A DNA stretch of 64,000 bases from Longimicrobiales bacterium (GTDB taxonomy: Bacteria > Gemmatimonadota > Gemmatimonadetes > Longimicrobiales > Gaopeijiaceae): the NCBI GenBank assembly GCA_963664435.2, contig CAXXKM010000001.1:1088001-1152000 (forward strand). The letters run 5' to 3'. Positions 1-14,805 of this stretch are shown here, one piece after another. The number at the start of each line of letters is the position of its first letter. The stretch's first letter is position 1. The translations under genes were made by a program, and so were the position numbers. Under the pieces are notes generated by a model. That model was not told where the DNA came from, searched no databases, and saw only the letters and a list, made by a program, of their open reading frames with translations.

Positions 1-315
1 GCCGGAGACCGCCCAACTCCGCCGGTACCGGACCCTCGAGCCGATTGCCGTCCAGGGACAGCCCCCGCAGGTGCACGAGGCTCCCCAGCTCCGGCGGAAT
101 CGGACCCTCGAGCCGGTTGCCGTTGAGCCACAGCCCCTCCAGACCGGCGAGATTCCCCAGCTCTGGAGGGATCGGACCCGCCAGCGCGTTGCCGCTCAGG
201 CTCAGCGACGTCAGGCCCGCGAGATTCCCCAACTCCAGCGGAATCGTGCCCTCGAGCGTATTGCCGTCGAGCCACAGCTCCTCCAGATCGGCGAGATTCC
301 CCAGTTCCGGCGGAA
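1..315 (-). pseudogene. 3' (distal) portion of an interrupted LRR lipoprotein gene; runs off the left edge
   Basis: Minus strand reads PPELGNLADLEELWLDGNTLEGTIPLELGNLAGLTSLSLSGNALAGPIPPELG..., 24-aa/72-bp plant-type LRR units; joins in frame to 6646-7330 across the att repeat. Confidence 0.9.
304..315. repeat. att core, left copy GTTCCGGCGGAA
   Basis: Identical to 6646-6657; lies within the palindrome AGTTCCG-G-CGGAACT (303-317). Confidence 0.85.
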
Positions 316-496
316 CTAGATATCCGTTGTCCCATGTAGTCCAATGAGGTACATGAGTGCGTTCATAACACGTTATTGGACAACCGTTTCCGGTGGTACT
401 GTCTCGTTTCATCGTCCCTTGCCGTCCGTTGTGATCCCGTGTATTCTTCCCTGTAGAGTGATTTGGTATGTGATACACAACGGCAGGAAGGACCGC

Positions 497-1651
497 ATGA
501 CGAAGCGACCCAAGACGCTTACCGCCGCCTTCGTTCGGACGGTCAGCCGACCCGGAGTCTACGGCGACGGACGAGGAGGCCGCGGGCTGAGCCTCCGGGT
601 GTACCGGACGGCCAACGGTCGGATCACCAAAACGTGGCGTCAGCGCGTCCGGATCGACGGGCGACTCACCTCGATCGGTCTCGGTCCGTATCCCGAGGTC
701 ACGCTCGCCGACGCCCGGGAAAAAGCGCTGGACAACAGCCGGAGGGTTCGCCGGGGACAGGATCCGCGCGGGCGCGGCGTGCCGACCTTCGCCGAGGCGG
801 CCCGGCGGACCATCGAGCTTCACCGCGACTCGTGGAAGGCCGGGAGCCCCTTGCCTCAGCAGTGGGAATCCACGTTCCGGCTCCACGCCGCCCCGCTCCT
901 CGACAAGCCGGTGGACCGGATCACGAGCGCGGACGTGCTCGGGTGCCTTGGCCCGATCTGGAACTCGATGCCCACGGCCGCGCGGAAGGCCAAGCACCGG
1001 ATCGCCGCCGTGTTCCGGTGGAGCATCGGCCGCAATTACCGCCGGGACAACCCGGTCGACCGGGCGGTTGCGGCGTTGCCGAAGCCGAACGGGAACCCAG
1101 GAAGCCATCACCGCGCCCTGCCGCACGGGGAGATCGCTGCGGCGCTTCGTTCCATCCGCCGGGTGGGGGACGGGAGTCTGGCTGCGTTGTGCGCCGAACT
1201 GATTGTGCTCACGGCAGTCCGTCCCGGCGAGGCGCGTGGCGCGCGGTGGGACGAGATCGACATGGACGCGGCAAGGTGGACGATTCCGGTGGCGAGGATG
1301 AAGGCGGGACGCGAGTTCACGGTCCCGCTCAGCACGGGCGTGCTGGAGGTGCTGATTCAGGCGCGCAAGCTGTCGGACAAGTCGCCGCTGGTGTTCCCGT
1401 CGCGGACCGGCCGGACGCTTGCGCCGAAGACGGTGTCGCGGGTGCTCCAGATGGCCGGGGTGGACTCGACGCTGCACGGATTCCGGTCGAGCGCCCGGTC
1501 GTGGATGGCCGAGACCGGCGTCCCGGCGGAGGTCGCGGAAGCCTGCCTCGCCCACGTTCCCAAGAGCCGGGTCGTTCAGGCGTATCAGCGCTCCGACCTG
1601 CTGGAGAGACGCGCCGAAGTCATGCAGGCTTGGAGCGACTACCTCGGGTAG
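497..1651 (+). CDS. P4-like tyrosine integrase with N-terminal arm-binding domain
   Basis: GVYGDGRGGRGLSLRV arm domain; VRPGEARGARWDEID, HGFRSSARSW, LAH...AYQRSDL catalytic motifs; AGGAAGGA before ATG 497. Confidence 0.95.
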   Translation: MTKRPKTLTAAFVRTVSRPGVYGDGRGGRGLSLRVYRTANGRITKTWRQRVRIDGRLTSIGLGPYPEVTLADAREKALDNSRRVRRGQDPRGRGVPTFAEAARRTIELHRDSWKAGSPLPQQWESTFRLHAAPLLDKPVDRITSADVLGCLGPIWNSMPTAARKAKHRIAAVFRWSIGRNYRRDNPVDRAVAALPKPNGNPGSHHRALPHGEIAAALRSIRRVGDGSLAALCAELIVLTAVRPGEARGARWDEIDMDAARWTIPVARMKAGREFTVPLSTGVLEVLIQARKLSDKSPLVFPSRTGRTLAPKTVSRVLQMAGVDSTLHGFRSSARSWMAETGVPAEVAEACLAHVPKSRVVQAYQRSDLLERRAEVMQAWSDYLG

Positions 1652-1952
1652 CCACTTGCCTCCCCCAACGCCGATCAGCACCACCCTTCCACCTCCGTAG
1701 CGCGGTTCGGCGGTCGCCCGCGACCGCGTTGCCGGCATCCACGGCGTCAGCCGGGTCGAACCGGGCCTCGTCGGACCGGTTGTCACACCTTCGGACGATC
1801 ACTCCGCGGTTCGCCAGGGGGGGATCTTGCCACGCCGCTGGCAGCGACCGCAAACGGGTCGTAGACGGCGTTGGAACCCCATGGAAGGCTGTGGAAAGGT
1901 AGGGAATTTCCGACCGTTGACGCCGTCCCGAATGGTCCACCAGCGTTCAGGC

Positions 1953-2180
1953 ATGGAGACGCTGGAAGAGCTATTCAGATCGCGGGTTAGCGCGTTCCTC
2001 GGGCGTTCGAGCCTGAGCCCGACGGCGTTCGGCAAGAAGGCGCTGGGCGACCCGAACCTGATGCGCCAGATCGGTCGGGGACGCTCGCCGACGCTGAGGA
2101 CGGCGGACCGGATTCTCTCGTTCATCGCCGAGCAGGACGGAGCATCGGGCGGTGGACGCGATCCGCCTCGACGCCCGTGA
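1953..2180 (+). CDS. Small Cro-like HTH regulator
   Basis: SPTAFGKKALGDPNLMRQIGRGRSPTLRTADRI resembles phage/island small HTH proteins. Confidence 0.65.
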   Translation: METLEELFRSRVSAFLGRSSLSPTAFGKKALGDPNLMRQIGRGRSPTLRTADRILSFIAEQDGASGGGRDPPRRP

Positions 2181-2228
2181 GACCGGAGACCGACCAGCAA
2201 GCAGCGAACAAGGAGGAGGAGAAGGACG

Positions 2229-2525
2229 ATGACCGAGAACACGATGGAACGGAGGATGAACCCGCCGATCCGCTTCCTGCGGCTGCCCGAGGTGATGGCG
2301 CGCACCGGCCTGTCGCGGAGCACGATCTACGTGCGGCTGGCAGAGGGGCGCTTCCCCCGGCCGGTCGCCCTGGGCGGGCGGGCCGTGGGGTGGATCGAGG
2401 CCGAGGTGGACGAATGGGTCCGCGAGCGCATCGCCGAGAGCCGGTTCGACGGCGCGCGGGCCGGTGAGCGCGGCGAGGCCGCGCGGGGGATTCGCCGGGC
2501 GGCAGAGGCCGGCCCGGTTCGATGA
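2229..2525 (+). CDS. alpA: AlpA-family regulator / recombination directionality factor
   Basis: RFLRLPEVMARTGLSRSTIY...GRFPRPVALGGRAVGWIEAEVDEW. Confidence 0.9.
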   Translation: MTENTMERRMNPPIRFLRLPEVMARTGLSRSTIYVRLAEGRFPRPVALGGRAVGWIEAEVDEWVRERIAESRFDGARAGERGEAARGIRRAAEAGPVR

Positions 2526-2583
2526 GCCGGCGCGCTTCGCGGCGGTCGGGGAACAGCCCGTCGGACTCGTCTAAGGCCGGTGA

Positions 2584-2617
2584 GCCAGCACACGCGATGT
2601 TGAACATCGCGGCTGGC
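2584..2617. other. Candidate oriT hairpin
   Basis: GCCAGC-aca-CGCGATGTT-g-AACATCGCG-GCTGGC inverted repeat just upstream of mobC. Confidence 0.5.
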
Positions 2618-2719
2618 GAGGGGTTGCTGCGCCCCCTTCGAACCCCCGGCCTGCCGCGTCCCTGGCGGAGCAGCGGACGCGCGGGGGCGAGGCCCCCGAA
2701 ACCCGTCTCCGGTGCGACC

Positions 2720-3058
2720 GTGGCTGAGCATCGCACCGTGATGGTCGCCGCCCGGGTCACGCCCGCGGAACACGCCGCCTGGCGGGAGAAGGCGGCTGCG
2801 GCGGGCGTGTCGCCGTCCGCGCTGCTGCGCGAGGCGATGGCGCGGACCCAGACCTGGACCGCATCGGCACGGGCCGTCGAGCGCAAGCGCACCCGCCAGA
2901 TCGCGCGCATCGGAAACAACCTGAACCAGCTGGCGCGCTGGGCGAACACACACGCCTCGACGGCCGAGGCGGTCTCGGTGATCGCCCATTTGGTGTCGTT
3001 CGAGCGGTCGCTGCTCGCCGTGGCACGCATCGGCGAGGAGGCCCGCGATGCTCGTTAA
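2720..3058 (+). CDS. mobC: MobC/MbeC relaxosome accessory protein
   Basis: RHH-like N-terminus and RQIARIGNNLNQLARWAN motif; overlaps the relaxase start. Confidence 0.9.
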   Translation: MAEHRTVMVAARVTPAEHAAWREKAAAAGVSPSALLREAMARTQTWTASARAVERKRTRQIARIGNNLNQLARWANTHASTAEAVSVIAHLVSFERSLLAVARIGEEARDAR

Positions 3059-4571
3059 GTTCCTCTCCCATGGGAAGGGCTCGGCCCGGGCGGCGGTCGA
3101 GTATCTCGTCGGCGAGCGGGACGCGGCGGGACACGAGCGCGAAGGCGTCGAAGTCTTGCGCGGGAACCCGGAGATGGTGGCCGCCGTGGCCAACTCGCTC
3201 GACTTCGAGCGCAAGTACACGTCGGCCGTGATCGCATGGGCGCCGGAGGACCGGCCGACCGGCGAGCAGATCGGAGCCGTCCTCGACGAGTTCGAGAAGA
3301 CCGCCTGGGCGGGACTGGAGCCGGACCGCTACGCGTGGACGGCCGTCCTGCACCGCGAGCGCGGCGGTGGCGTCCACGCGCACATCCTCGCCGCGCAGTG
3401 CGACCTCCAGACCGGGCGGAGCCTGAACATCGCGCCTCCCGGCTGGCAGCAGACCTTCGCCCCGCTTCGCGACGCCTTCAACCACGAGCACGGCTGGAGC
3501 CGCCCGGACGACCCGGCGCGAGCCAGGGCGCAGCGGCCGGGCCACGTGGCCTACATCGAGGCGTCGAAGCTGCGGGCCGGACTCGAACACGAGGCGGACC
3601 CCCGCACGCTGATCCGCGACTATCTGGTGCAGCGCGTCGAGCACGGCGCGGTCAAGGGCCGCGCCGACGTGGTCTCCGCGCTGGAGGACGTGGGGCTTGA
3701 GGTGCCCCGCCAAGGCAAGGACTACATCACCGCCCGCGATCCGGAGAGCGGCAAGCGGTGGCGGCTGAAGGGAGAACTGTATGAGCGAGACTTCGAGCCC
3801 GAACGACTTGACCTCGCGGCTGAGGAGCAGGCTGGAGGCCGACCGGAAGGAGATCGAGGAGACGGCCACGCGCGAGCTCAGGCGGCTTGGCGAGAGCTTA
3901 GGCGCCGTCAGAAGCGACGCGCTGCGTTCCATCGAGGCCGATACGGTCGAGGCGACCGGGCGGATGCGCGAGTTGCTGATGAAGGCCTGGCTCCGGCCGC
4001 TGGTGGTCGGCATGAGCCTCTTCCTTGGTATCTGCGGCGGCAGCTGGGCGACGATGCACTGGTTGTCGAGGAGCATCGACTCCCGGATCGAGACCTTGGC
4101 GGAGGTCAAGCTCAGGATCGTGCGGGCGCGCGACACCTTGGCGGTGATGCACGAGACGACGTGGGGCATCGAGTTGCAGGAAATCAACGGGGATCGGTAC
4201 GTGTTGCTGCCCGCCGACACTCCGGGCCGTCCGGCATTCACCATGGACGGACGGCCCTACATGAAGCTCTCGAGAGAGTGAGGAGGGAGTTGCATGAACG
4301 ACTTGGAACGGCAGTTGACAACCGCCTTGGAGCGGTTGTCCGAGCAATACGAAACGGAACAGCGGCGGCACTGCGGACAGATCGAAACGTTGCGCGAGCA
4401 GGTCGAAGCCTTGCAGCGGCAAGTCGAGCGGCTGAGCGGGCGGGTGACGGAGTTGACCGGATACTCCGGGACCTACGGCGCAGGGCCAGGGCGCGGGTGG
4501 AGATGACGCGCCGACTGGTGGAAAAGATCAGGCGTCCCGGGCCGGATCGGGACTCGGGGCCGAGCCGGTGA
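3048..4571 (+). CDS. Relaxase, ColE1 MbeA-like (MOBP)
   Basis: MLVKFLSHGKG..AVEYL, VLRGNPE, KYTSAV, VLHRERGGGVHAHIL, DLQTGRSL. Confidence 0.9.
   Translation: MLVKFLSHGKGSARAAVEYLVGERDAAGHEREGVEVLRGNPEMVAAVANSLDFERKYTSAVIAWAPEDRPTGEQIGAVLDEFEKTAWAGLEPDRYAWTAVLHRERGGGVHAHILAAQCDLQTGRSLNIAPPGWQQTFAPLRDAFNHEHGWSRPDDPARARAQRPGHVAYIEASKLRAGLEHEADPRTLIRDYLVQRVEHGAVKGRADVVSALEDVGLEVPRQGKDYITARDPESGKRWRLKGELYERDFEPERLDLAAEEQAGGRPEGDRGDGHARAQAAWRELRRRQKRRAAFHRGRYGRGDRADARVADEGLAPAAGGRHEPLPWYLRRQLGDDALVVEEHRLPDRDLGGGQAQDRAGARHLGGDARDDVGHRVAGNQRGSVRVAARRHSGPSGIHHGRTALHEALERVRRELHERLGTAVDNRLGAVVRAIRNGTAAALRTDRNVARAGRSLAAASRAAERAGDGVDRILRDLRRRARARVEMTRRLVEKIRRPGPDRDSGPSR
3781..4281 (+). CDS. MbeB-like mobilization protein nested in the relaxase gene
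   Basis: Alternate-frame ORF with coiled N-terminus and a TM segment, in the position of ColE1 mbeB. Confidence 0.65.
   Translation: MSETSSPNDLTSRLRSRLEADRKEIEETATRELRRLGESLGAVRSDALRSIEADTVEATGRMRELLMKAWLRPLVVGMSLFLGICGGSWATMHWLSRSIDSRIETLAEVKLRIVRARDTLAVMHETTWGIELQEINGDRYVLLPADTPGRPAFTMDGRPYMKLSRE
4294..4506 (+). CDS. MbeD-like protein nested in the relaxase gene
   Basis: MNDLERQLTTALERLSEQY resembles the MbeD N-terminus; RBS GAGGAGGGAG. Confidence 0.75.
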   Translation: MNDLERQLTTALERLSEQYETEQRRHCGQIETLREQVEALQRQVERLSGRVTELTGYSGTYGAGPGRGWR

Positions 4572-4800
4572 TGATGCCCTTGCTGCTGGTCGGCCAAGTG
4601 GCGGCCTCAGTCCCAGAGCGACTCGAAGACCCCTGACATCAGCCGAGTCCTTCCCATTGCGGGGCTTGCCCGAACAGGCTTGCACGAAAGGCTTGATGGC
4701 TAACCACATTTGCGTTAGCATGCGGGCGTTCACGGGCCGTGTCTCCCCGACGGGTGGCGCGGCCAATCTTTGGCAAACCTCTTATGGGAGCCCAACACAG

Positions 4801-5007
4801 ATGTCATTCCTCACCCGTTCTTTCCGTGGCTTGGTCGGTTCGCTCTGCGTCGCCGCCGCGGTCGCTTTCCCTGGAACCGCTCAAGACGTCGGCGACTTGG
4901 ACCCATGCTTCGACACCTGTCACAGTGTCGCCATGCTCATCTATCTGGGCGGTGACGAGGACGGAGCGTCGGACTTCTTCGACGAGTGCATGGACACCTT
5001 TTGCTAG
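4801..5007 (+). CDS. Small secreted acidic Cys-containing peptide
   Basis: Signal-like N-terminus, then CFDTC and CMDTFC; 68 aa. Confidence 0.55.
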   Translation: MSFLTRSFRGLVGSLCVAAAVAFPGTAQDVGDLDPCFDTCHSVAMLIYLGGDEDGASDFFDECMDTFC

Positions 5008-6158
5008 TTGCCGGTCCTGACTCGGTGTTTCGCAGTTGTTGGGTGGTCGCGGCAATCTCAGCACTCGCCGCGACCGCCTGCCAGACCGAGCCCGCACATG
5101 TCGCTATACCTGAGTCGCTCGCGTTGTTTCCTGCGGCGGCGTCTCCGGCACCACTGAGCGTCAGCAGGAGCATCGCCCTCGCTGACGAAGAGACAGCCTG
5201 CGTCGTCGATTCGTTTGAATTTCGGGTGGTTTGTGGCAGGCGTGAAGGCGAAGAGGGCGTCGCATTTGGGCGGCAGGGCGATGGCCCAGGGGAGTTCCGT
5301 GGCCTCAGTTTGGTGGCCCGTGTTGGGCTTGGCCGCTTGGGCGTCGTGGACGGTAGGCTGAACCGGTTGACCATATTCAGCGCCACTGGTGACCGCGTAT
5401 CGGAGGTCACTTTGCCTCCGATGTACTTCGCCGATGGAATTCGACAGACGACCTTATTCGGGTCCGAGGTCGATCTAGCAGCGTATTCCCCGGGAGATTC
5501 GATCTTGACGCGGGTCTACTCCCAGGTGGACGTCAATTCGGGAGAGGTCACATGGACGCGCGGAGATATGAACGGGCTCGCCGATACTGAGTGCGGCGGA
5601 TTGGACAAGGGCGTGCCTCGACCGGCGGCAGGATACGTGTTCTGGGCATGTCGCAAAGAGTTGGTCTTTCTTGACTACAGTGACGCCGACGCCGCGACTG
5701 TAATCACGTCTCCAGCCTATCGGGAAGAACTCCCGAGCCAGCGTGATGTCGAGGCTTTTGCTGAGGGGCTGACGAGGCTTGGAGGTAGGATGGCCATGCC
5801 GAGGTCGGCGGCCAATCCCTACGTCGAGACATTCCGTGAAGCACCTAAGCGGTGGTTCAACGTGCCGGGCGCGCTGCTGTTTGATTCAAAGGACCGGTTG
5901 TGGGTGGCAACCACGCTCGACCGCGACACCTTCTCTTACTTCGAAATCTGGATTGGGACCGAATACGCTGGTTCCGTTCGGGTGCGGGATCGCGCGATGG
6001 GCTTCGACCTCTTCCGCAACACTCTGGCGGTATTGGTCGAACGGCAACCGGGACCCGACGGAATCGCACCTCGGGGTATCGACTGGTACGACATCCGTGA
6101 CCTCGATTGCCGAGCATCAGAGGCCGACCGAGGTTGCAGTCTAAGCCCTAGCAGCTAG
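4986..6158 (+). CDS. Beta-propeller (6-bladed/NHL-like) lipoprotein, element cargo; start uncertain
   Basis: Lipobox ATAC; FGRQGDGPGEFR motif. Confidence 0.75.
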   Translation: MHGHLLLVAGPDSVFRSCWVVAAISALAATACQTEPAHVAIPESLALFPAAASPAPLSVSRSIALADEETACVVDSFEFRVVCGRREGEEGVAFGRQGDGPGEFRGLSLVARVGLGRLGVVDGRLNRLTIFSATGDRVSEVTLPPMYFADGIRQTTLFGSEVDLAAYSPGDSILTRVYSQVDVNSGEVTWTRGDMNGLADTECGGLDKGVPRPAAGYVFWACRKELVFLDYSDADAATVITSPAYREELPSQRDVEAFAEGLTRLGGRMAMPRSAANPYVETFREAPKRWFNVPGALLFDSKDRLWVATTLDRDTFSYFEIWIGTEYAGSVRVRDRAMGFDLFRNTLAVLVERQPGPDGIAPRGIDWYDIRDLDCRASEADRGCSLSPSS

Positions 6159-6645
6159 TAGCCCCCTTCCATCTTTGGTTTGACGCTAGGCGCGCCGGCG
6201 ATAATCGGGTGCCCCGGTCCCGATGGAGGTGAAAGGGAGGATGCTTCGTCGGGCTGCCCGGTCGCGATCAAGGGCAAACGCCGCACGAGGTAGCGCCCAA
6301 GCCACGAATGAGGCGGCTGGCCCGCCGCCCGCGGATAGGCCAACCGAAGGGGCTCGCCAGCCGGCGATATCGTTTCGACACCACGGGTATCGTCTTCGCT
6401 CTCTACTCCGCGTCCCGATGGAGGTGGCAGCGGGGCGCTTCGTTGGTTGCTCGGTCCCCGCTGAGCCTCACCCCCACGATCCGCACAACCGGTCGCTCGC
6501 CACGGCCTGACCGAACGGTTACATCCAACGGCATCCGGTGCGGTCGCGTGGATTCCTGCTCATTTCTGTATATCTCAGGTGGTACATGAACGCCAAATGT
6601 CCGTGTAACCCGTTGTAATATAGTCGTTTAGCATCGTGTGCAATG

Positions 6646-6657
6646 GTTCCGGCGGAA
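6646..6657. repeat. att core, right copy GTTCCGGCGGAA
   Basis: Identical to 304-315; LRR homology stops exactly here. Confidence 0.85.
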
Positions 6658-7330
6658 TCGGACCCGCCAGCGCGTTGGCGCGCAGATTCAAGGACGTCAG
6701 GCCCGAGAGACGCCCCAGTTCCGACGGGATCGTCCCCCGCAGGCCGTGCGACACCCACTCCCCGGTCTCCCCGTCCTGGCGGCCGCCGAGGTCCAGGCGG
6801 ACGACCCGGCCGAAGGCGTCCGTCTCCACCCCGCGCCAATCCTCCAGCGGCCCGTCGGTCAGCCAGTTCTCGTCGTCGGCCCAGTTCGGCCCGTCCGTCG
6901 CCGCGTGGAGCGCGGCCAGCGGCGCCCGGTCCCCACTCTCCACCGCGACGGTCACCGTCGCCGTGCCCGCAACCGCACCGACCGTCGCCGCGACCGTGGT
7001 CGTCCCGTTGCCGGTCGCCGCCACCAAGCCCGACCCGCCGACCGTCGCGACCTCGGGGCGCACGCTCGTCCAGATCACCGCCACGCCGGACATCGCCCGC
7101 TCGTTGCCGTCGCGCACGTGCGCGCTGAGTTGCACGGTCGCGTCCGGCGCCGTGAGCGACGCGGCCGCAGGCGTGACCGTCACGCTGGCCACGCCAAGCG
7201 TCTCGGAGGGAGGGCGCGTTGCGTCGTCGCCGCACCCCGACGACGCACACGCCGCGACCGCGCAGATCGCCAACAACGGGACGCGAATCCGTGTGCGGAC
7301 GTTCGGGGCCCCATCGCTCTCTCGTTCCAT
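6646..7330 (-). pseudogene. 5' portion of the interrupted Ig (Big_2) + LRR lipoprotein gene
   Basis: Lipobox SSGC, Ig-like VTVTP...WTSVRPEVATV, LRR N-cap ALHAATDGPNW...WRGV, first LRRs; truncated at IPPE (read-through stop at 6575). Confidence 0.88.
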
Positions 7331-7426
7331 GCCCGCGGGATGATTCGGCCCCGGCTCCACGACGGGCTCGGAGTTCGTTCGGCGGACCGACCGGGACCGG
7401 GTTGTTGTCGTCATTGCTGAATAGGG

Positions 7427-7464
7427 AGCAACCCCCCGCCCGGCGAACCGGACGGGGGGTTGCT
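7427..7464 (-). terminator. Stem-loop downstream of the giant lipoprotein gene
   Basis: AGCAACCCCCCGTCCGG-TTCG-CCGGGCGGGGGGTTGCT on the minus strand; no clear U tract. Confidence 0.6.
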
Positions 7465-7501
7465 GCTGCCATCGGTCAGGCCGATGGGGTTGGAGGGTGG
7501 A

Positions 7502-10500
7502 TTAGCTGGGTGGAATGGCTGCCGGGGTGCCCTTCGCCCACGTGCCCCCGTTGTCCACCCTCGTATCGACGCGAAGCTGGCTCGCCTTCGTCAGGTTGGA
7601 CTGGCTGACTGTGTAGAGAAGGGCTGGAGCGTCATCGTCTACCCATCCGTCGGTTGCTGCGTTGGCAGGAAGGTTGAGGTCAAAGTCACTCGAGTTCCAC
7701 TTGCCCCAGTCGGATCCAGAGTCGGTTTCTGGGTCGGTGTCCCTCGATACGGTAGGCGCCGTGATGGTGCCAGCGACGACCCATTCCCATCTGTTCTCCG
7801 TGGTGGAGCCGGTCTCGACCTGGACATATAGCGCGATTCGGTGCTCCAACTGCGGGCTGCCCGCTCCAGACCAGGAAGCTGTGATCACGTCTGTCACATC
7901 GGCGCCTCCTACGCCGCCCCCGATGTCGCGGTCCACCGTGACGCCCGAGGCACCCGAGGCCACGCCGGCAAGCTCTGCAGCGGCACTGACGGCGGCCGCG
8001 GCGTCGCGCGCGGTTCCATCTGCATCTACCACTGCGTTGCCGATCTTGACGTTGATCTCCCGGTAGTCATCATCGTCGTCTTCAGGAATGATGTACGTGG
8101 TAATCCGATCGTGCTTTACGGTGGTACCGGCGCTCGCCGTCCCGCGGCCGGCGGTACCGGCGGTGTTCGCACTAGTCCTCGTCCCGCGGATGGCGGGGGC
8201 CACGGTGGTGACGCCGCCCGAGGGCGCAGCAAAGGTGCTGCCGGTCGCGGTTGTCAAGGCGACGGTCGCATCATCCGCGGCCGTGTACGGGTTCGTGTTG
8301 CCGGCGCCGTCGTCGCCGGGTGCATTTCTGGTCTCGTAGTGCCACGTCACCACGATCGTGTCCGTAGGTTCTCCCTGGACGAGGCTGAATCCACGGGTGG
8401 CCGCGTCCGGTGTAATGGCGCTGGCCGGAACGGCCTCGCCTTCATGGGCGGCCCTTATCGTCACCCGCCTGACGCTCGCGATTCGGGGCTGGACGCTGTT
8501 TCCGGTGAACGTGCCGAACTGCAAGGTCTGGCCGGGGATGACGGCGATCGTGCCGCCGGGTCTGGTTGCCGGCGGATCGAACCAGGTATACCTCTCCGCG
8601 TCCCTCAGATTCAGGAAGTTCGGATGGGTGGGATCATAGTCGTCCCGAGGCGCGGCGCTGAGGGTGACGGTGCCGCTCAGGGTGGGCACCTTGAGGCTGA
8701 ACGTCCCGGTCTCCGTGGTTGTCACTTTAGTGCTACCCGACGTGGGAGCAGTCCAGGACGCCGTGACCGTAACCTCGGCGTGGGGCATGCCGCCTCCCGG
8801 ACCGGTCACCAGGCCAACAATCTCGGTGGCCGCGTAGCCTGTGAAGTCGATGCTCTGGCTCCCCCCGGCGATGGCCGAGGCCTGGCGGCTGGCGGGTATG
8901 AAGTGATAGCCGGTCTTACTCGGAGTCACGTCAACGAGTGGGTCATTGTTCGGCTGGATTTCGACGACCGCCGTGTAGGTGCCATCATCATCCGTCGTGA
9001 CCTTCCCTGATCCCTGCCCTGATCCCGCGTTGAGCGGGGCCTTGCCGTCCACCTTGATCTCCACGCCCTTGATCGGTGCGTTGGTACCGGCTTCCGTGAC
9101 CGTGCCGGTGATCGCGACGGTGTTGTTCGCGCCACTGAGGGAGATGTCGTGCCTCTCCACCGTGTTGGCGGCGAACGCGGGGGGGTGGGTTCCGGAGCCG
9201 GGGTTGTTAGTGGAATCCGCCTTGGCCGCCGGATATCCCGCCCTCTCCGTATTCACGAAGAGCTGTCCCCGCACGGCGCTGATGCCGGACACGATGTAGC
9301 GGCCCAGGTCGTCGGTCGTGGCCGTCATGCCGTTCACGGTCACGGTCACGTTCTCAAGGCCGACGCCGAGCGCGTTCCGCACGAAGCCGTAAAGGGTGGA
9401 GGTGGACGGTGTGACGTCGATGTGGACGTTCGTACCGTGGCCTCCCTGCCCAAGCGGGCTGAGCGCGTCTTCCGCCTTCATGGCGCCGACCATGCCCCGC
9501 CATCCGTCGGGAAGGCCGAGCTCGTAGGCGCCGGCCGCCATGGTTTCGAAGTCGTGATCGGTGCGCTCGTCGATGTCTGTCGTCGGGTCGTTGCTCGACG
9601 CAGTGGTGAAGGACCGTCCGACACCCGCGAGATTCTTGCCTTCGGCCGGTGTCAGGCTGACCTCGACCCCCGATTGACGCTTATCCCTGGCGTCGGTCGT
9701 ACTGAATCCGGCGCCCGACTTCCTGACTCCGTTCTTCGACACGTTCGCGGTCACATCGTGCGTGGTGACGACGGCGAACGAACCGCACTTGCCGAAGTCC
9801 TGGCCGGTGGGCTCGGTCTCCGTCAGCGGACAGAGCGTCACCGTGTGCCCCCAGCCGCCCATCGCGCCGAACGCACCGCCCATCACGCCGTTCTCGGCCA
9901 TGTTGCGGTAGGTGTCAAGCCCGTGGAGGTCAAGCAGCATGTAGCCGTCCATGGCGGTCGCATGAACGACAATGTCCAGGTCCGCCGGCAGGTGGGCGAA
10001 GGTGTATGCGCCCCTGCTGCCGCTCGTGTTCGCCCTGGAGTCCCAATCATCGCTCGAGATCGGACTGGTGAACCTGCCGTCGTTCCCGCTCGCCTGCCGG
10101 ACCTCGAGATCGACCAGCCCGGCTGCCCTGACGTCGCCACCCAGGACGCTGCCCGTGTAGCCGCGGACCTGGTCGCGCTCGTGGTGCACGTAGACCTTCA
10201 GCGTCTGGGTCGTGTAGGTCACCACGATCGGAGTGGCGTCCATGTTGCCAGCCAACTTGAGTCCGTTGTGCTCGTACATGCCGCCGGACGCCTCGTACAT
10301 CTCGCCGCCGTCCAGCTCGTCGTCCTGGTCCTCGGCGGCCGCAAAGGTGAAGACTGCGGGCAGGGCGTCGGGGGCCACGACGGTCGTGAACGCCGCGTTG
10401 CCGTCGTCGTCCAGCATCGTCGGCGCACCTGGGACCGCGTCTGCGCCGGACATGACGCTGATCTCCCAGCCAGCGAGCGCTTCGCCGCCACCGTAGTCGG

Positions 10501-12388
10501 TCATGACCGTGGCGCCGCTGACGTTCACGTCAACGTTCAGGTTGACGATGTCGGCGTCGTTGAGAACCGCAGGCGGATCCGCGCCCGCCGCCGGATGCAC
10601 AAACGACTGTGGATCCCACGTCACGGCCTGCATCTCGGCCGTCGGATCCACGAAGTAGTCGTCCGCAGCAACCATCATGTGGACCGTGTTGTCGCTGGTG
10701 CCGGCACGCGCAACCTTGATCGACGCATAGACGCCGGCCTCGCTGGCCTTGGTCTCCCCGCTGCCGACCATGGCGTTGTTCGCCCCGTAGAACGTCACGC
10801 TGGCGCCGGGAATCGGATCGCCGCGATACTCGCCGCCCTTCAGCGTGACCGCGACGTTGATCGTCGTGTGTGTGATGTCGAACGGAACGGCCTGCATCTT
10901 TTGCTCACCGACGTCGAGGTCGAAGGCGTAACCCACCCCCGGTCCGCCGTACGCGACATCGTTTGCCGCGAGCGCGGCTGCAACCGTGGCGTCGATCGGC
11001 ACGACCAGCTGGTAGGAGCCGGCACGCAGACCCGGGAACATGAACGAGCCATCCGGCCCGGTCGCGCTCAGCCGCTGGTCATTGACGCCCGGGCCCACCA
11101 GCGCCACCGGAACACCAGGTGCCGGCAACGGGTGCTCGCCCGCGTCCATCATGTCGTTCTTGTCCAGTTCGTCGAGGAACAGCATCCCCGAGACGCTCGC
11201 CGTGGTGGCGTGCGCACCCTCGAAGTTCACGATCACCGACTCGTCGTCGCCGACCGTCACGCTCGAGCTCATCCCATCGAACACGTAGGCATCGCCCATG
11301 ACCGCGATCGTGACCGTGTAGTCGCCCGCTGCCAGGCCCGCGAAGGCGTACTGGCCGCTGACGTCGGTCATCGTGCTCGCGTCGGCCGCGCCTGATAGCG
11401 TGACCGCGATGTCTCCGAGTCCCATGCCCTCGACGCTCACCCGGCCGCTGATGCCCGAGGTGCGGAGCAGGACGCCCGTGAACGACACCGTGCCGGTCTC
11501 GTCGAGATCCACGCTCACGTCCTGCGACGTGGCCGCAAACTCGTAATCGCGCGGGTCGAAGTCCGCGATCTCGACCCTGTAGTCACCGGGGCGAAGTTCC
11601 TCGAACCGGAACATGCCATCGCCGTCCGTCATCATCGTGTAGCTCTCGTCGGACGGACCGCCGGTCAGCGTAACCGTAATGCCGGCAAGCCCCTCGCCTT
11701 CGATGATCACCTGACCCTCGACCGCGGAGGTGCGGATGAAGTGGCCCGTGAAGTCGGCCTGGCCGACATCGCCCACGTCAACCTCGATCTCGACGCTCAC
11801 CGTCTCGAAGGAGATGTCCTCGGGATAGTCCGAGATCGTGACCGTGTAGGTGCCCGCGCGGAGTCCGGTGAAGGCGAAGCCGCCGCTCATGTCGGTCTCC
11901 ATGGTCTCGCCCATGGCGTGCTCGCCGCCGAGGGTGACCGTCACGCCAGCCAGCGTCTCGGGCTGACCGTCGCCGCCGCTCATCATGGCGTCTGCCGCAA
12001 CCACGTTGCCGACCACCGCGGAGGAGCGGACGTACTCGCCGGCGAAGTTGAGTTGGACGTTCTGACCATCGGTCGCGATGGTCGCGGACTGCGTCACCTG
12101 GGCGAACGTCGCATCCTCGGGGAAGCCGCTGATGGTGACCGTGTAGGTCCCGGCTTCCACGCCCGAGAAGGCGAAGCTGCCACCCGACCCCGTCGTCGTG
12201 GTCGCACCCGACGACAAGGTGGCGGTGATGCCGCTGGCGGCCGTGCCTTCAATCGTCACCGTCCCCGAGATGGTTCCCACGGGAGTGGGCGGCGGGGGCG
12301 GCTCCACAGGCGGTGGAGTGCCCTCGTCGCAGGCGGTGAAGGCCAAGGCCATCAGCGTAGCTGTGGCGAAGAGTCTGAGTCGATTCAT
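7502..12388 (-). CDS. Giant surface lipoprotein with tandem carboxypeptidase-regulatory-like/prealbumin-fold repeats
   Basis: 1628 aa; lipobox FTAC, Pro linker, repeated G(T/D)Y(T/R)V(T/E)I and ISGxV units; RBS AGGAG. Confidence 0.85.
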   Translation of the reverse strand: MNRLRLFATATLMALAFTACDEGTPPPVEPPPPPTPVGTISGTVTIEGTAASGITATLSSGATTTTGSGGSFAFSGVEAGTYTVTISGFPEDATFAQVTQSATIATDGQNVQLNFAGEYVRSSAVVGNVVAADAMMSGGDGQPETLAGVTVTLGGEHAMGETMETDMSGGFAFTGLRAGTYTVTISDYPEDISFETVSVEIEVDVGDVGQADFTGHFIRTSAVEGQVIIEGEGLAGITVTLTGGPSDESYTMMTDGDGMFRFEELRPGDYRVEIADFDPRDYEFAATSQDVSVDLDETGTVSFTGVLLRTSGISGRVSVEGMGLGDIAVTLSGAADASTMTDVSGQYAFAGLAAGDYTVTIAVMGDAYVFDGMSSSVTVGDDESVIVNFEGAHATTASVSGMLFLDELDKNDMMDAGEHPLPAPGVPVALVGPGVNDQRLSATGPDGSFMFPGLRAGSYQLVVPIDATVAAALAANDVAYGGPGVGYAFDLDVGEQKMQAVPFDITHTTINVAVTLKGGEYRGDPIPGASVTFYGANNAMVGSGETKASEAGVYASIKVARAGTSDNTVHMMVAADDYFVDPTAEMQAVTWDPQSFVHPAAGADPPAVLNDADIVNLNVDVNVSGATVMTDYGGGEALAGWEISVMSGADAVPGAPTMLDDDGNAAFTTVVAPDALPAVFTFAAAEDQDDELDGGEMYEASGGMYEHNGLKLAGNMDATPIVVTYTTQTLKVYVHHERDQVRGYTGSVLGGDVRAAGLVDLEVRQASGNDGRFTSPISSDDWDSRANTSGSRGAYTFAHLPADLDIVVHATAMDGYMLLDLHGLDTYRNMAENGVMGGAFGAMGGWGHTVTLCPLTETEPTGQDFGKCGSFAVVTTHDVTANVSKNGVRKSGAGFSTTDARDKRQSGVEVSLTPAEGKNLAGVGRSFTTASSNDPTTDIDERTDHDFETMAAGAYELGLPDGWRGMVGAMKAEDALSPLGQGGHGTNVHIDVTPSTSTLYGFVRNALGVGLENVTVTVNGMTATTDDLGRYIVSGISAVRGQLFVNTERAGYPAAKADSTNNPGSGTHPPAFAANTVERHDISLSGANNTVAITGTVTEAGTNAPIKGVEIKVDGKAPLNAGSGQGSGKVTTDDDGTYTAVVEIQPNNDPLVDVTPSKTGYHFIPASRQASAIAGGSQSIDFTGYAATEIVGLVTGPGGGMPHAEVTVTASWTAPTSGSTKVTTTETGTFSLKVPTLSGTVTLSAAPRDDYDPTHPNFLNLRDAERYTWFDPPATRPGGTIAVIPGQTLQFGTFTGNSVQPRIASVRRVTIRAAHEGEAVPASAITPDAATRGFSLVQGEPTDTIVVTWHYETRNAPGDDGAGNTNPYTAADDATVALTTATGSTFAAPSGGVTTVAPAIRGTRTSANTAGTAGRGTASAGTTVKHDRITTYIIPEDDDDDYREINVKIGNAVVDADGTARDAAAAVSAAAELAGVASGASGVTVDRDIGGGVGGADVTDVITASWSGAGSPQLEHRIALYVQVETGSTTENRWEWVVAGTITAPTVSRDTDPETDSGSDWGKWNSSDFDLNLPANAATDGWVDDDAPALLYTVSQSNLTKASQLRVDTRVDNGGTWAKGTPAAIPPS

Positions 12389-12764
12389 GGAATCTCCTGA
12401 GTGATGGGAATGAATACCGGCCTGAAGCGGCTGGAGAGAGTCGCGTGCCCTCGGATAAGCAAAGGTGGTGCCAGTTTGGAAACCTTCATATTTCTCAAGC
12501 AGTTACGGACTATCCTTCTGCTCCACGGCACAGCCTCATCGGTGAAAATCCTCGGATAATCGAGGATCAACGCTGTTTTCTGAATATGACAAAAGCGATG
12601 GTTATACATCGGTATTGACCTACACTGTCCTCCCGCTTGTCGCATGCCGTGATCAGAAACCCGGCTCTCAAGATACCGGCTCACCTTCCGTCGTCATAGT
12701 GACAATAACGGGGATCGCAAAGGACACAAACGATGACGGCTACCCGGGCCGGACCCCTACTATA

Positions 12765-12791
12765 TGATAGGCGCCTATGATTTGATAGGCG
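12765..12791. promoter_or_regulatory. Candidate operator
   Basis: Perfect palindrome ATAGGCGCCTAT (12767-12778) and TGATAGGCG direct repeat (12765, 12783) in an AT-richer divergent intergenic region. Confidence 0.45.
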
Positions 12792-12898
12792 TGACAAAAT
12801 GGTGACTCTGCCCTACTGGTATTGTCGGGCTCACTAGTGGGCAAGGAAGTCGCCGCGATGGTCGCTCGCGCATCCTGCTCCCAGGGACGGCGTGGCGG

Positions 12899-13762
12899 AT
12901 GGAATCGGAACGAACTGTCTACTCGCTGTATTGCACGGACGACGATCTTGGAGACCGACTCGAGCGGGTGCTTCACGGTGTCGCCGTCCAGCGAGTGAGG
13001 TCGAGAAAGGCACTCGTGGCGGCGTCCGTGAGCACTCGGGCGGCGGTCGTCGGCATCACCGCGTGCTCCGATACCGAGATCGCATGGCTGCGGTCGGGCT
13101 TCGGGCTTCTGGGTCCGCCTTGCGTCGTGGTGGCGCGCCTCTCGGTGGGCTGCGTGCGACGATTGCAAGCGCTCCGTTCCGGCAGGGTGCGGGTCATCTG
13201 GGCGGACGAAGTGGAAAGCCGCCTCGTCGAGGTCCTGGAGGGCTTCGCGGGAACGCACCGGGGTCCGATGTGGCGGCTCGGCGTGAAGCTGCTCTCCGAT
13301 CACTCCTTCAGACCTTCACTCCGGGAGACCATCAGCCGGGTCTGCGGCCTGCACGACGATGTCGGGGACGCCCCGTTCATCCCGGCAAACTCGGTCGGCC
13401 GACTGGCGCGCCGCGTCGACCTGGCCCCTCCTACGCTGAGGCAATACTGGAGGGAGGACATGCCCCTCCGGTGCAGCCTGAAGGAATTCCTGGGCTGGGC
13501 GGTCATCCTCTGGGCCGTGCGCGCTCGCTCGCGGGACGGCTGGAACGCCATCGCCGACCGGGCGGGACTGCAGCGCCGCACCCTGCAGAGGAACTTCAAC
13601 CGGCTGGCTGGCTGTACGCTCGCGGCGGCGGCCGAGGATCCGGAGCAGGTCGTTCGGCGATTCAACGAATGGGTCGATTCGGTGTGGGAGCCCCACGCCG
13701 GCAACGGGCCCGGGAAATCCCATCCGGTTCCCGCGCGGGCAGCCGTCGAGCGGATATCGTGA
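12899..13762 (+). CDS. Putative transcription regulator (degenerate receiver-like + AraC-like HTH)
   Basis: Two HTH-like segments: SVGRLARRVDLAPPTLRQYW and WNAIADRAGLQRRTLQRNFNRLAG. Confidence 0.55.
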   Translation: MESERTVYSLYCTDDDLGDRLERVLHGVAVQRVRSRKALVAASVSTRAAVVGITACSDTEIAWLRSGFGLLGPPCVVVARLSVGCVRRLQALRSGRVRVIWADEVESRLVEVLEGFAGTHRGPMWRLGVKLLSDHSFRPSLRETISRVCGLHDDVGDAPFIPANSVGRLARRVDLAPPTLRQYWREDMPLRCSLKEFLGWAVILWAVRARSRDGWNAIADRAGLQRRTLQRNFNRLAGCTLAAAAEDPEQVVRRFNEWVDSVWEPHAGNGPGKSHPVPARAAVERIS

Positions 13763-14805
13763 CCGTGGCCGGATCGACTTACCGGCGTTACGTCGGCTGG
13801 CGCTGCAGGCTCTATCCGAGTCCCTCACAGGACGCGGCGCTGCACCGATGCAGGAACGGCCTGCGCGAGCTCTCCAATGAACTGCTCGTCGCCTCCCAAC
13901 TCAGGTACGGGGAATCCGGACGGCGGCTCTCCCTGACCGAGATGCGCGCCTTCGCGCGGGACTGGAAGCGGCAGCCGGAGCACAGGGGGTTCCCCGCCAG
14001 CGCCACCTACCGCGTCGCCGACGATCTCGACCGCGCCTTCCGCACCTGGTTCAGCAAGCCCGGCAGACGTGGGCGAAGCGGGTTCCCCCAGCTGAAGGCC
14101 ATCGGGGGAGAGCCCGGCATCTACTTCAGCAACCAGGGCATCCGCATCGAGGGCAGCCGGGTGTGGCTGCCCAAGTACGGCTCGGTGCGCTGGAAGGGCG
14201 GGAGGCTGCCCCCCGGGAGACTCGCGGGACCGTCCGGACGCAAGACCCTCGGTCTGCTCTCCGGACGAGTCTGGCTGGACGCGGGAAACCGGTGGATGCT
14301 CTCCTGCCTGTTCGAGTGCGAGCCGCTCACCCCTTCCAGGGCGAGAACGGACAAGGCCGCGGTCCGACAACACGGCCGCGAAATCATGGTGTCGGTCGAC
14401 GGGGAATCCGTCCACGTGATCCGCGAGAGCAGGGCGCTCCGCAACGCCAGACGCCGCCTGGCAAGGCTCGAGCGGCGGCTGGAGCGATGCGAATTCAAGT
14501 CCGAAGGCCGCAAGCGCACCCTGGCTCTCATGCGCAACCAGGCGCGCAAGGTCCGGAACCACCAGGCGGATCTGCAGCACAAGGCCACGACCGGCGTCGT
14601 GCATGAAGCCCGCGAGATCGAAGTCGAAGGCGCGAGCTCGGAACTGCTGCGCCAACTCGAATACAAGGCGGAGTGGCACGGCCGCCGACTGAAGGTACGG
14701 CGAGGCCCGCCGGAACCGGGGACCGGCAATCCCCGACGCGCGCGGAGACCGGGGAGCCGGTCGCTGAAACGCGAATCGCGGACGCGAAGGTCGAAAGCCC
14801 TGTAG
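13759..14805 (+). CDS. TnpB-derived protein, probably nuclease-dead
   Basis: WRCRLYPSPSQ, DLDRAFRTWF, GFPQLK, VWLPKYGSVR, LQHKATT, LRQLEYKAEWHG; RuvC-I Asp, Zn finger and RuvC-III not evident. Confidence 0.85.
   Translation: MTVAGSTYRRYVGWRCRLYPSPSQDAALHRCRNGLRELSNELLVASQLRYGESGRRLSLTEMRAFARDWKRQPEHRGFPASATYRVADDLDRAFRTWFSKPGRRGRSGFPQLKAIGGEPGIYFSNQGIRIEGSRVWLPKYGSVRWKGGRLPPGRLAGPSGRKTLGLLSGRVWLDAGNRWMLSCLFECEPLTPSRARTDKAAVRQHGREIMVSVDGESVHVIRESRALRNARRRLARLERRLERCEFKSEGRKRTLALMRNQARKVRNHQADLQHKATTGVVHEAREIEVEGASSELLRQLEYKAEWHGRRLKVRRGPPEPGTGNPRRARRPGSRSLKRESRTRRSKAL

Follow-up and report, generated by a model that had tools for sequence, protein, structure and literature searches.

What determines where a mobile element lands when its site lies inside a protein-coding repeat, and what becomes of the gene that it splits? 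Both questions arise near the start of a 64,000-nucleotide stretch of a Longimicrobiales genome (contig CAXXKM010000001.1, positions 1,088,001 to 1,152,000; hereafter the window), where a 6,342-bp element encoding a tyrosine integrase interrupts a gene with leucine-rich repeats (LRRs). From a comparison of this integrase with its relatives, we conclude that the element is very probably an integrative mobilizable element (IME) that targets the LRR codons for I-P-P-E-L. An earlier note, made from the letters of the window, had proposed that excision of the element could switch the LRR gene on, an idea that is weighed below. Throughout, G000 is the genome of the window (4.5 Mb), L numbers are integrase loci and X numbers are public runs.

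A 12-bp repeat bounds the element and the LRR gene is split in frame

The word GTTCCGGCGGAA occurs as an exact pair at 304-315 and 6646-6657, with a start-to-start distance of 6,342 bp. The two copies have unlike neighbours, a/g at the 5′ border and c/t at the 3′ border; the repeat is therefore exactly 12 bp and the unit 6,342 bp. Together with its flanks, the core of the left copy reads AGTTCCG-G-CGGAACT, a near-perfect 15-bp palindrome, and the GC content dips at both element ends (0.59 at 201-600 and 0.59-0.64 at 5200-6600, compared with 0.70-0.76 in the flanks). On the minus strand, an open reading frame (ORF; start at 7414, or ATG at 7330) reads ...LRANALAGPIPPE, its LRR part ending ...ALAGPIPPE, after which 23 unrelated codons and a stop follow inside the element. 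LRR coding is taken up again in the same frame at 316/315, as (V)PPELGNLADLEELWLDGN..., and runs on for 985 amino acids (aa), past the left end of the window to G000:C1:1085362. Codon bookkeeping shows that removal of the 6,342 bp keeps the frame, with the split point between ...GPIPPE and LGN.... The repeat, the in-frame split and the near-palindromic core had all been described in the earlier note, and each was found as described.

The features at the two ends of the element are as follows.

1..303, minus strand: distal part of the split target gene (LRR units), from ORF continuity and LRR_1/4/8 matches
304..315, no strand: attL, 12-bp core GTTCCGGCGGAA (minus-strand codons E-P-P-I)
316..496, plus strand: integrase-proximal arm, attP-derived, starting CTAGATATCC...GTAGTCCA, with a junction block conserved in relatives
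6380..6645, plus strand: distal arm, attP-derived, with right-arm homology in 9 related elements
6646..6657, no strand: attR, 12-bp core copy
6658..7414, minus strand: proximal part of the split gene, with signal/lipobox, Big_2 and the first LRR units

The words GGTACATGA and TCCGTTGT are common to both arms and are candidate arm-type sites only, the shared words being just 7-9 nt long and not above what chance could give. A tRNA or tmRNA gene as the target was considered and rejected: the window contains none, and the junctions fall in LRR codons.

The target gene is a 72-bp tandem LRR array in which core-like words recur (for example GCTCCGGCGGAA at 88-99). Allowing up to one mismatch, GTTCCGGCGGAA has 7 matches in the window where 0.76 are expected, a number reached by 0 of 100 shuffles, and the exact core word has 10 copies in the 4.5-Mb genome, mostly in LRR paralogues, where ~0.5 are expected. 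Given this recurrence, the 12-bp repeat alone is weak evidence and no proof of an attachment site, and the comparative data carry the case.

Close relatives of the integrase sit at the same codons of many LRR genes

We searched 201 genomes of the family and obtained integrase matches at E <= 1e-40 in 33, with G000 counted; a scan of genome contigs gave 72 further loci, in Gemmatimonadota, Longimicrobiales and 'Candidatus Palauibacter' metagenome bins. After removal of duplicates, 108 integrase copies had a readable upstream flank, while 1 match lay too near a contig end. The junction is always found ~190 bp upstream of the integrase start, directly before the conserved element end, and what lies on its other side depends on integrase identity to that of the window.

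Integrase identity: copies at LRR IPPE(L) codons
At least 85%: 28 of 29
80-85%: 35 of 44
70-80%: 0 of 20
Below 70%: 0 of 15

At 80% identity or more, LRR IPPE(L) junctions are thus found in 63 of the 73 distinct copies, and these 63 (that of the window included) correspond to 62 different flanking peptides. The junction peptides are PPEL (30), IPPE (25), or variants such as PAEL, PPEM, IPAE, LPPE and PPEF. The sole non-LRR case at 85% or more is L048 (96% integrase identity), in which the integrase-proximal arm is missing. L087 was excluded from the LRR count at 80-85% (the automatic score was 36/44), as its site AGTTCCGGTAGAACT belongs to a non-LRR gene; L088 has another non-LRR look-alike site, and the other exceptions in this range form a class with the junction ...GGTTGAACTC. 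All 20 copies at 70-80% share the flank GCAGATCGTGCAGTCC....

For 8 elements the two ends could both be located, and their identity segments measure 9-13 bp (12 in the window, 13 in L030, 11 in L031, 9 in L032, 11 in L049 and 13 each in L056, L071 and L080). In gene orientation, all 8 segments include GCCGGAA or the variant GCCCGAA, which places strand exchange, as far as can be judged from this shared part, within the P-P-E codons. Right arms were found in only 10 of the 63 LRR-class copies, a low number mostly due to contig ends; direct repeats were located by motif and right-arm searches, a plain search for repeats between junction and downstream sequence being confounded by the LRR repeats themselves. 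These junctions show that the element and its close relatives have the near-palindromic IPPEL-coding DNA of LRR genes as their attachment site. The earlier note had placed the attachment site in just these codons, and had suggested looking at the flanks of integrase homologues; the closest homologues do sit in LRR genes.

Were there no site-specific integration at all, the 12-bp repeat would be a recurring LRR motif, and the arrangement would result from homologous or illegitimate recombination, or the LRR flanks would be part of the element. The core word does belong to the 72-bp tandem array and has 10 copies in the genome, as this account would have it. It does not explain that the same codons are hit in 63 junctions, each with the element's conserved end directly after GAACT, that the arms are conserved where the flanks differ (62 distinct), that intact homologues lacking the element are colinear across the site, or that the sister clade of the integrase has its own different, equally precise junction. 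We consider this account almost certainly wrong.

The element is found in both orientations

The LRR gene is antisense to the integrase in 36 junctions, where the flank ends in ...AGTTC[C/G]GGCGGAACT, and sense in 27, where it ends in ...GAT[T/C]CCGCC[G/C]GAACT. The two core orientations differ just at the central base and at the outer two or three bases, and a nearly palindromic core of this kind predicts insertion in both orientations. In a FastTree tree of 90 integrases, the GCAGATCGTGCAGTCC/GGTTGAACT class separates the LRR-targeting copies into two groups. A minimum of 11 changes of orientation is required by this tree, and near-identical integrases differ in orientation (the two copies at L080).

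Several loci show more than one element. Related elements form head-to-head pairs at L074 (OZ242312.1, ~9556-10001) and at L080 (~9123-10001); the junction flanks at L074 share one LRR unit (PPELGSLTRLETLDFERNELAGPIPPE), which indicates that neighbouring IPPEL sites of one gene are both occupied. L086 (CBDBPR010000004.1), one of the 10 copies with a right arm, has distal LRR gene parts of opposite strand on its two sides: a minus-strand one on the left, and a plus-strand one past the nearest right arm. These flanks misfit a simple insertion and may reflect two elements or a rearrangement between elements. At L031 (G113:C1:140000-159000), a related element (integrase 87% identical) is 15.8 kb long; its relaxase gene is broken after ~residue 330 by a 7.4-kb insertion holding an LRR gene and a 41%-identical integrase (oriented ~6834-14281), an element within an element.

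The elements could also be viewed as a source of variation, at the level of the population, in the eukaryote-like LRR proteins on the surface of sponge symbionts: reversible insertion at any of dozens of LRR units, either way round, would switch individual LRR-protease genes off and on, and integrase-mediated recombination between copies in different LRR genes would make chimeric ones. The L074 pair, the L086 flanks and a homologue of the target in G172 that is cut at another LRR unit (see below) are hints in this direction, and we hold the view to be unlikely.

The target belongs to a large family of surface proteins

Judged by its domains, the undivided target is predicted to be a surface protein of ~1,240 aa with a lipoprotein signal, a Big_2 domain, 24-residue LRRs and an M66-like metalloprotease. 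The N-terminal piece carries a probable lipoprotein signal (by eye), Big_2 (4.2e-8) and the first LRRs, and the C-terminal piece three further LRR blocks and a C-terminal HELGHNLGLHH (HExxHxxGxxH), with a weak Peptidase_M66 match (33.5 bits, cut-off 20.6). The earlier note had called the target an Ig-LRR lipoprotein; it is larger than the note had it, no small protein of that kind, with an M66-like metalloprotease and a family that has 15 matches in the genome. When the last 500 aa were searched in the genus, matches were found in 19 of 19 genomes (15 in G000, 4-26 in the others), many of them open frames of ~1,250-1,330 aa, and the target is thus one of many paralogues in a family of LRR-metalloprotease surface proteins. 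Integration is predicted to inactivate it, leaving the N-terminal 256 aa with a 23-aa foreign tail and a stop, and depriving the other 985 aa of their start and signal peptide. G000 contains 25 sites matching AT[TC]CC[GC]CC[GC]GAACT.

Directly upstream of the split gene, a 1,628-aa ORF (7502-12388, minus strand) encodes repeated segments of ~90-100 aa (of the ...GTYTVTISGFPED... type) behind a lipoprotein-like N terminus. Between its stop (7502, minus strand) and the LRR gene start lies an inverted repeat at 7427-7464 (17-nt arms, 94% complementary, 4-nt loop); if this is the terminator of the 1,628-aa gene, the start of the LRR gene is likelier at 7330 than at 7414. Elsewhere, at G000:C3:620267-623297, a paralogue of the target (55% identity to C-piece residues 148-985) is followed directly by a mobC fragment, which may be what is left of a further element at the end of this LRR-protease gene.

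The site is empty in close homologues and in one public run

In each of the 5 intact close homologues examined (two in G172, one each in G204, G198 and G113), the N-piece runs directly into the C-piece; C-piece identity is 83-87%. Their open frames are 1,224-1,238 aa long, the site reads ...RANAL(A/S/D)GPIPP(E/Q)LGNL..., and the G113 copy holds exactly the 19-mer predicted for the empty site. The closest homologue, G172:C29 (N-piece 89%, C-piece 81% identity), is also uninterrupted here; it is cut ~380 aa further on, where a related element of opposite orientation, with an 81% identical integrase, occupies a different ...GAIPPELG unit.

Parts of the stretch are present in 20 public runs from 7 studies, all as Logan contigs and none of them an RNA run, and four of these runs were compared (X1, X2, X6 and X8). 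In X1, X2 and X6, which belong to three studies, contigs extend over both occupied junctions (1-336, and from 6626 on) with 0 differing letters; the insertion is therefore no assembly artefact. In X8, one contig joins 303 to 6646 and skips the 6,342 bp, with 12 letters that fit both sides and 66 letters on the shorter side. This contig differs from the window in 11 of 211 aligned letters and represents a related strain, ~95% identical. Other joints (107 to 6816, 246 to 6855, 315 to 6879, 6872 to 84 and others) were rejected as excision products; their short sides of 22-36 letters run from LRR to LRR and are repeat cross-matches.

These data bear on the idea that the interruption is kept by the host as a dedicated switch, with regulated excision by the integrase and AlpA turning the LRR-protease lipoprotein on. 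Excision at the 12-bp core would indeed restore the frame exactly, the integrase and AlpA genes are intact with the catalytic residues conserved, the junctions lack differing letters in runs from three studies (2023-2025) and so appear stably carried, and on/off variation of a probable surface protein could plausibly matter. Nevertheless, the position is not conserved, the site being empty in the 5 intact homologues and in the closest G172 copy, and relatives occupy 62 different LRR units in both orientations. The element retains a complete relaxase module and a cargo gene, unlike domesticated switch elements, and one copy among 15 target-family matches in the genome is unlikely to be a master control point. 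Moreover, no excision product was seen in the contigs of the four runs or in a scan of metagenome contigs for the 19-mer predicted for the circle junction. A dedicated switch is therefore very unlikely in our judgement. As to the two checks that the earlier note had suggested alongside this idea, the empty site was found in homologues and in X8 but not in the same strain, and the contigs of the four runs contain no circle junction.

The element encodes an integrase, an AlpA-family protein and a mobilization module

The genes carried by the element are all on the plus strand.

497..1651, plus strand: P4-type tyrosine integrase, 384 aa from the conserved start (ORF open from 344)
1827..2180, plus strand: orf117, a conserved small ORF upstream of alpA; homologues align from ~residue 29-47 onward
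2229..2525, plus strand: AlpA-family DNA-binding protein (Phage_AlpA, E 2e-23; phrog_66 and phrog_2790, 'excisionase and transcriptional regulator')
2522..3058, plus strand: relaxosome accessory protein, NikA-like/MobC (NikA-like 3.8e-14; MobC 5.2e-11)
3048..4571, plus strand: MbeA-like relaxase, 507 aa (Relaxase, PF03432)
3781..4281, plus strand: nested 166-aa ORF, in another frame inside the relaxase gene
4294..4506, plus strand: MbeD/MobD-like ORF, 70 aa, nested in the relaxase gene (MbeD_MobD, E 1.6e-6; 28.5 bits, cut-off 21.6)
4986..6158, plus strand: cargo gene, 390 aa, with a probable lipoprotein signal

Pfam domain matches agree with the P4-type integrase and AlpA of the earlier note. 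The integrase has the domains Arm-DNA-bind_3 (3.4e-14), Phage_int_M (2.7e-14, SAM-like, central) and Phage_integrase (5.2e-19, catalytic); its central domain matches the solved 'Phage integrase' chain 2khv_A, and its homologues align from residue 1 of the start at 497. R242, K269, H327, R330, H353 and Y363 are invariant in 98 aligned homologues of 40-100% identity, and we take R-K-H-R-H/W-Y to be the catalytic set of tyrosine recombinases. The AlpA-family protein is likely an excisionase or regulator. The orf117 product, which has no family in Pfam, NCBIfam or PHROGs, has 4 further copies in the genome, each adjoining an alpA copy, and is 70-76% identical in related elements.

Compared with the model NF047848 (relax_MbeA_E1), the relaxase scores E 3.1e-34 over residues 1-489, with 119 bits against a curated equivalog cut-off of 500, and by this measure it would count as a relative and not as an equivalog. 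Both nested ORFs lie in 3048-4571 and both are kept in 9 further genome copies; the 166-aa ORF is 53-60% identical in these and has no family match in Pfam, NCBIfam or PHROGs. Its position at 3781-4281 is the place of mbeB in ColE1-type mob regions, in which mbeB and mbeD are nested in the relaxase gene. The cargo protein has no match in Pfam, NCBIfam or PHROGs either; its ESM Atlas features (scores 0.94-0.96) are similar to those of DUF5128/NHL clusters with six-bladed beta-propellers, a resemblance to be taken as a lead only.

Among the 9 element ORFs scanned, there was no match to a type IV secretion system (T4SS) or type IV coupling protein family, and the element contains no mating-pore genes. 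It thus combines an att-bounded integration/excision module with a relaxase module that lacks mating-pore and coupling-protein genes, and on this gene content (integrase, AlpA, NikA/MobC, relaxase, nested MbeD-like ORF and cargo) it is classified as a putative IME.

G000 stands out for its wealth of mobilizable modules. Besides the one in the window it has nine mobC-relaxase modules, likewise with nested ORFs and 47-74% identical to that of the window, at C1:1162946-1164944; C2:465436-467143, 835881-837589, 844575-846630, 913860-915763 and 1098135-1099806; and C3:42461-44354, 566940-569055 and 1148911-1150908. None of the nine adjoins a close copy of the window's integrase. The genome has ~10 related mob modules, yet just 2 distant integrase paralogues (52% and 42% identity), and both lie away from LRR sequence, which is uninformative about the clade to which the window's integrase belongs.

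Contig data hint at a possibly active family

The cargo region is more abundant than the flanks of this insertion. Cargo contigs that are 100% identical have a depth of 167 in X1 (flank contigs 34-36), 24 in X2 (flanks 4-5) and 117 in X6 (flank 13), an excess of ~5-9x. In X8, where the site is empty, the same run contains cargo-region contigs with few differences (13 over 769 bases; 6 over 532). Contig depths sum over organisms, however, so that the excess is weak evidence of mobility and shows only a higher abundance of the element and its relatives compared with this particular insertion. The summed depth of the bin 6423-6669 is higher still (4,521 in X1, 355 in X2, 7,455 in X6 and 542 in X8), compared with cargo-region depths of 24-167 in X1, X2 and X6 and 38-109 in X8; the distal arm is common to a very abundant set of related elements in sponge-derived runs. 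The cargo contigs of X8 and the depth excess hint that the family is active.

These hints are relevant to the explanation that the element integrated once, by the same mechanism, and is now a fixed and immobile remnant in an LRR pseudogene. The presence of occupied junctions only at 100% identity in three runs would fit such a remnant, as would the failure to find a helper T4SS in G000, and the loss of the integrase-proximal arm in L048, at 96% integrase identity, shows that decay occurs in the family. In the window, on the other hand, every ORF of the element is open, the arms and core copies at either end are intact, and few internal stops were seen among the matches listed in the family integrase search. 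The depth of the cargo contigs at ~5-9x that of the flanks, and the little-changed cargo region of X8, where the site is empty, also count against decay. We hold a decayed remnant to be quite unlikely.

Proposed mechanism

The reading that we favor, and think likely, is that of a mobile parasite with a multi-copy target inside a redundant LRR gene family. Its P4-type integrase would use a near-palindrome of ~13-15 bp (ATT/C CCG CCG/C GAA CT) that encodes the I-P-P-E-L of 24-residue LRRs. Strand exchange would take place inside the P-P-E codons, leaving an integrated copy flanked by a 9-13-bp identity segment and an LRR gene cut in frame. The site nearly equals its reverse complement, so that insertion by the same integrases occurs either way round, and with the dozens of IPPEL sites that every LRR-rich genome of this group offers, the target is a many-copy one. 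Excision by the integrase, together with the AlpA-type factor, would return the gene exactly to its unsplit form, and the MbeA-type relaxase module could then mobilize the circle through a helper conjugation system. From the number of paralogues, we infer that disruption of the gene is a tolerated by-product and not a regulated switch. The position of strand exchange, competence for excision and mobilization are likewise predictions drawn from the DNA.

Several points weigh against the parasite reading. Direct evidence for excision or transfer of this copy is lacking: the empty site of X8 belongs to a ~95% identical strain and so represents absence of the insertion, not excision; X1, X2 and X6, which contain the strain at 100% identity, show occupied junctions only and no empty site of the same strain; and no circle junction is present in the contigs of the four runs. 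Contigs drop rare variants, so that the occupied-only junctions do not exclude excision. The 19-mer predicted for the circle junction had 2 matches in metagenome contigs, both unrelated and without similarity to the element, one of them reading like an ...MVPAELG... stretch of a housekeeping gene. In the search of G000 for a helper conjugation system, PF03135, PF12846 and PF02534 had 0 matches; PF10412 had 11 weak partial matches in ORFs of ~800 aa, and this family also matches 7 of 14 control genomes. The shortness of the identity segments and the repetition of the LRR motif make the crossover positions indirect deductions, and the integrase tree was built with FastTree without bootstraps. 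Tolerance of the disruption is argued from paralogue number. Finally, many loci come from metagenome bins, some of them labelled as other phyla, where binning errors are possible.

Elements with LRR-type flanks in bins of other phyla are L057, L059, L060, L067, L073, L081, L103, L106 and L107 (Gammaproteobacteria), L065 and L069 (Acidobacteria) and L077 (Binatia). They may result from binning errors on high-copy contigs or from transfer beyond Gemmatimonadota.

A sister group of integrases uses another site

The sister group, with integrases 74-84% identical to that of the window and sites outside LRR genes, comprises L013, L016, L019-L022, L034-L045, L047, L091, L097, L099, L100, L115, L116 and L118. 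Its flank reads ...GCAGATCGTGCAGTCC, followed by (T/C)(G/A)GTTGAACT or ATCA(T/C)(C/G)AACTGCC, and direct repeats of 15-16 bp are present in three loci (L036, L039 and L044). G185 has at least 7 copies of the group, which indicates that the sister target is multi-copy too. There were 0 tRNA genes in the four loci scanned for this target (L039, L036, L044 and L034) and 0 Rfam matches in two loci, and only a very short ORF (...KELSKFNQDCTICRSCRW...*) runs across the reconstructed site.

Significance and comparison with known systems

Site-specific integrases are usually thought to have one safe landing site per genome, typically the end of a tRNA gene. The lineage described here would instead read the DNA of a conserved protein repeat motif, which gives it dozens of landing sites per genome, and the near-palindromic site would allow both orientations. 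Its insertions fall in eukaryote-like LRR proteins of sponge symbionts, and such proteins have long been suspected of a role in symbiont-host contact in sponges. This offers a testable link between the large mobilome of sponge symbionts and their expanded repeat-protein families, and close integrases, whose sites are LRR codons or belong to the GGTTGAACT or GCAGATCGTGCAGTCC class, form a natural series in which to study shifts of specificity. A caution for annotation follows, as many of the 'truncated' LRR genes in these genomes are probably genes split by elements.

The integrase and AlpA modules of islands and satellite prophages of the P4/CP4-57 type resemble those found here in domain architecture, catalytic residues, the nearby AlpA and the short identity segment. 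Elements of this type typically integrate at the 3′ terminus of genes for tRNA or tmRNA, or in a single housekeeping gene; here, in contrast, there is no tRNA in the window, and the site lies inside a coding repeat, is present dozens of times per genome and is used in both orientations. Excisable elements that interrupt genes include skin in sigK, the comK prophage of Listeria, SPbeta in spsM and the nifD element, and here too an ORF is interrupted that a site-specific recombinase could restore precisely. Elements of the skin and comK type, however, hold one conserved position in one gene, are inherited with it, and in several cases have lost transfer functions, whereas the present family occupies 62 LRR units, is absent from the same site in relatives and keeps its mobilization genes. 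Insertion sequences of the IS1397/ISKpn1 type target repetitive extragenic palindromes, with transposases acting on non-coding repeats. Common to these and to our element is a short palindrome, present in many copies per genome, that a mobile element exploits; the differences are the tyrosine integrase of an IME, the coding nature of the repeat and the reversible, conservative recombination that such an integrase would perform.

In the full-text literature, in which subscription journals and supplements are not covered, we found no integrase described as targeting the codons of LRRs or of any other protein repeat, and in the accessible part of the Palauibacterales paper (PMC10469786) the word 'integrase' has 0 occurrences. 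IMEs such as NBU1, SGI1 and the streptococcal IMEs (review PMC5704250; PIME preprint 10.64898/2026.01.12.698999) are likewise small, with an integrase, an excision factor, a relaxase and its accessory protein, little cargo and no mating-pore genes. The element of the window differs from these in its target, a protein repeat and not a single gene end, in its ColE1 MbeA-type module with nested ORFs and in its sponge-associated Gemmatimonadota host. The dusA-specific integrases (PMC4482086) are, next to the insertion sequences that target extragenic palindromes, the nearest in concept: both they and the integrases described here are tyrosine integrase lineages whose site lies in conserved codons of a protein-coding gene, but where dusA is single-copy and offers one site, the codons used here belong to a repeat that offers many near-palindromic sites per gene and per genome.

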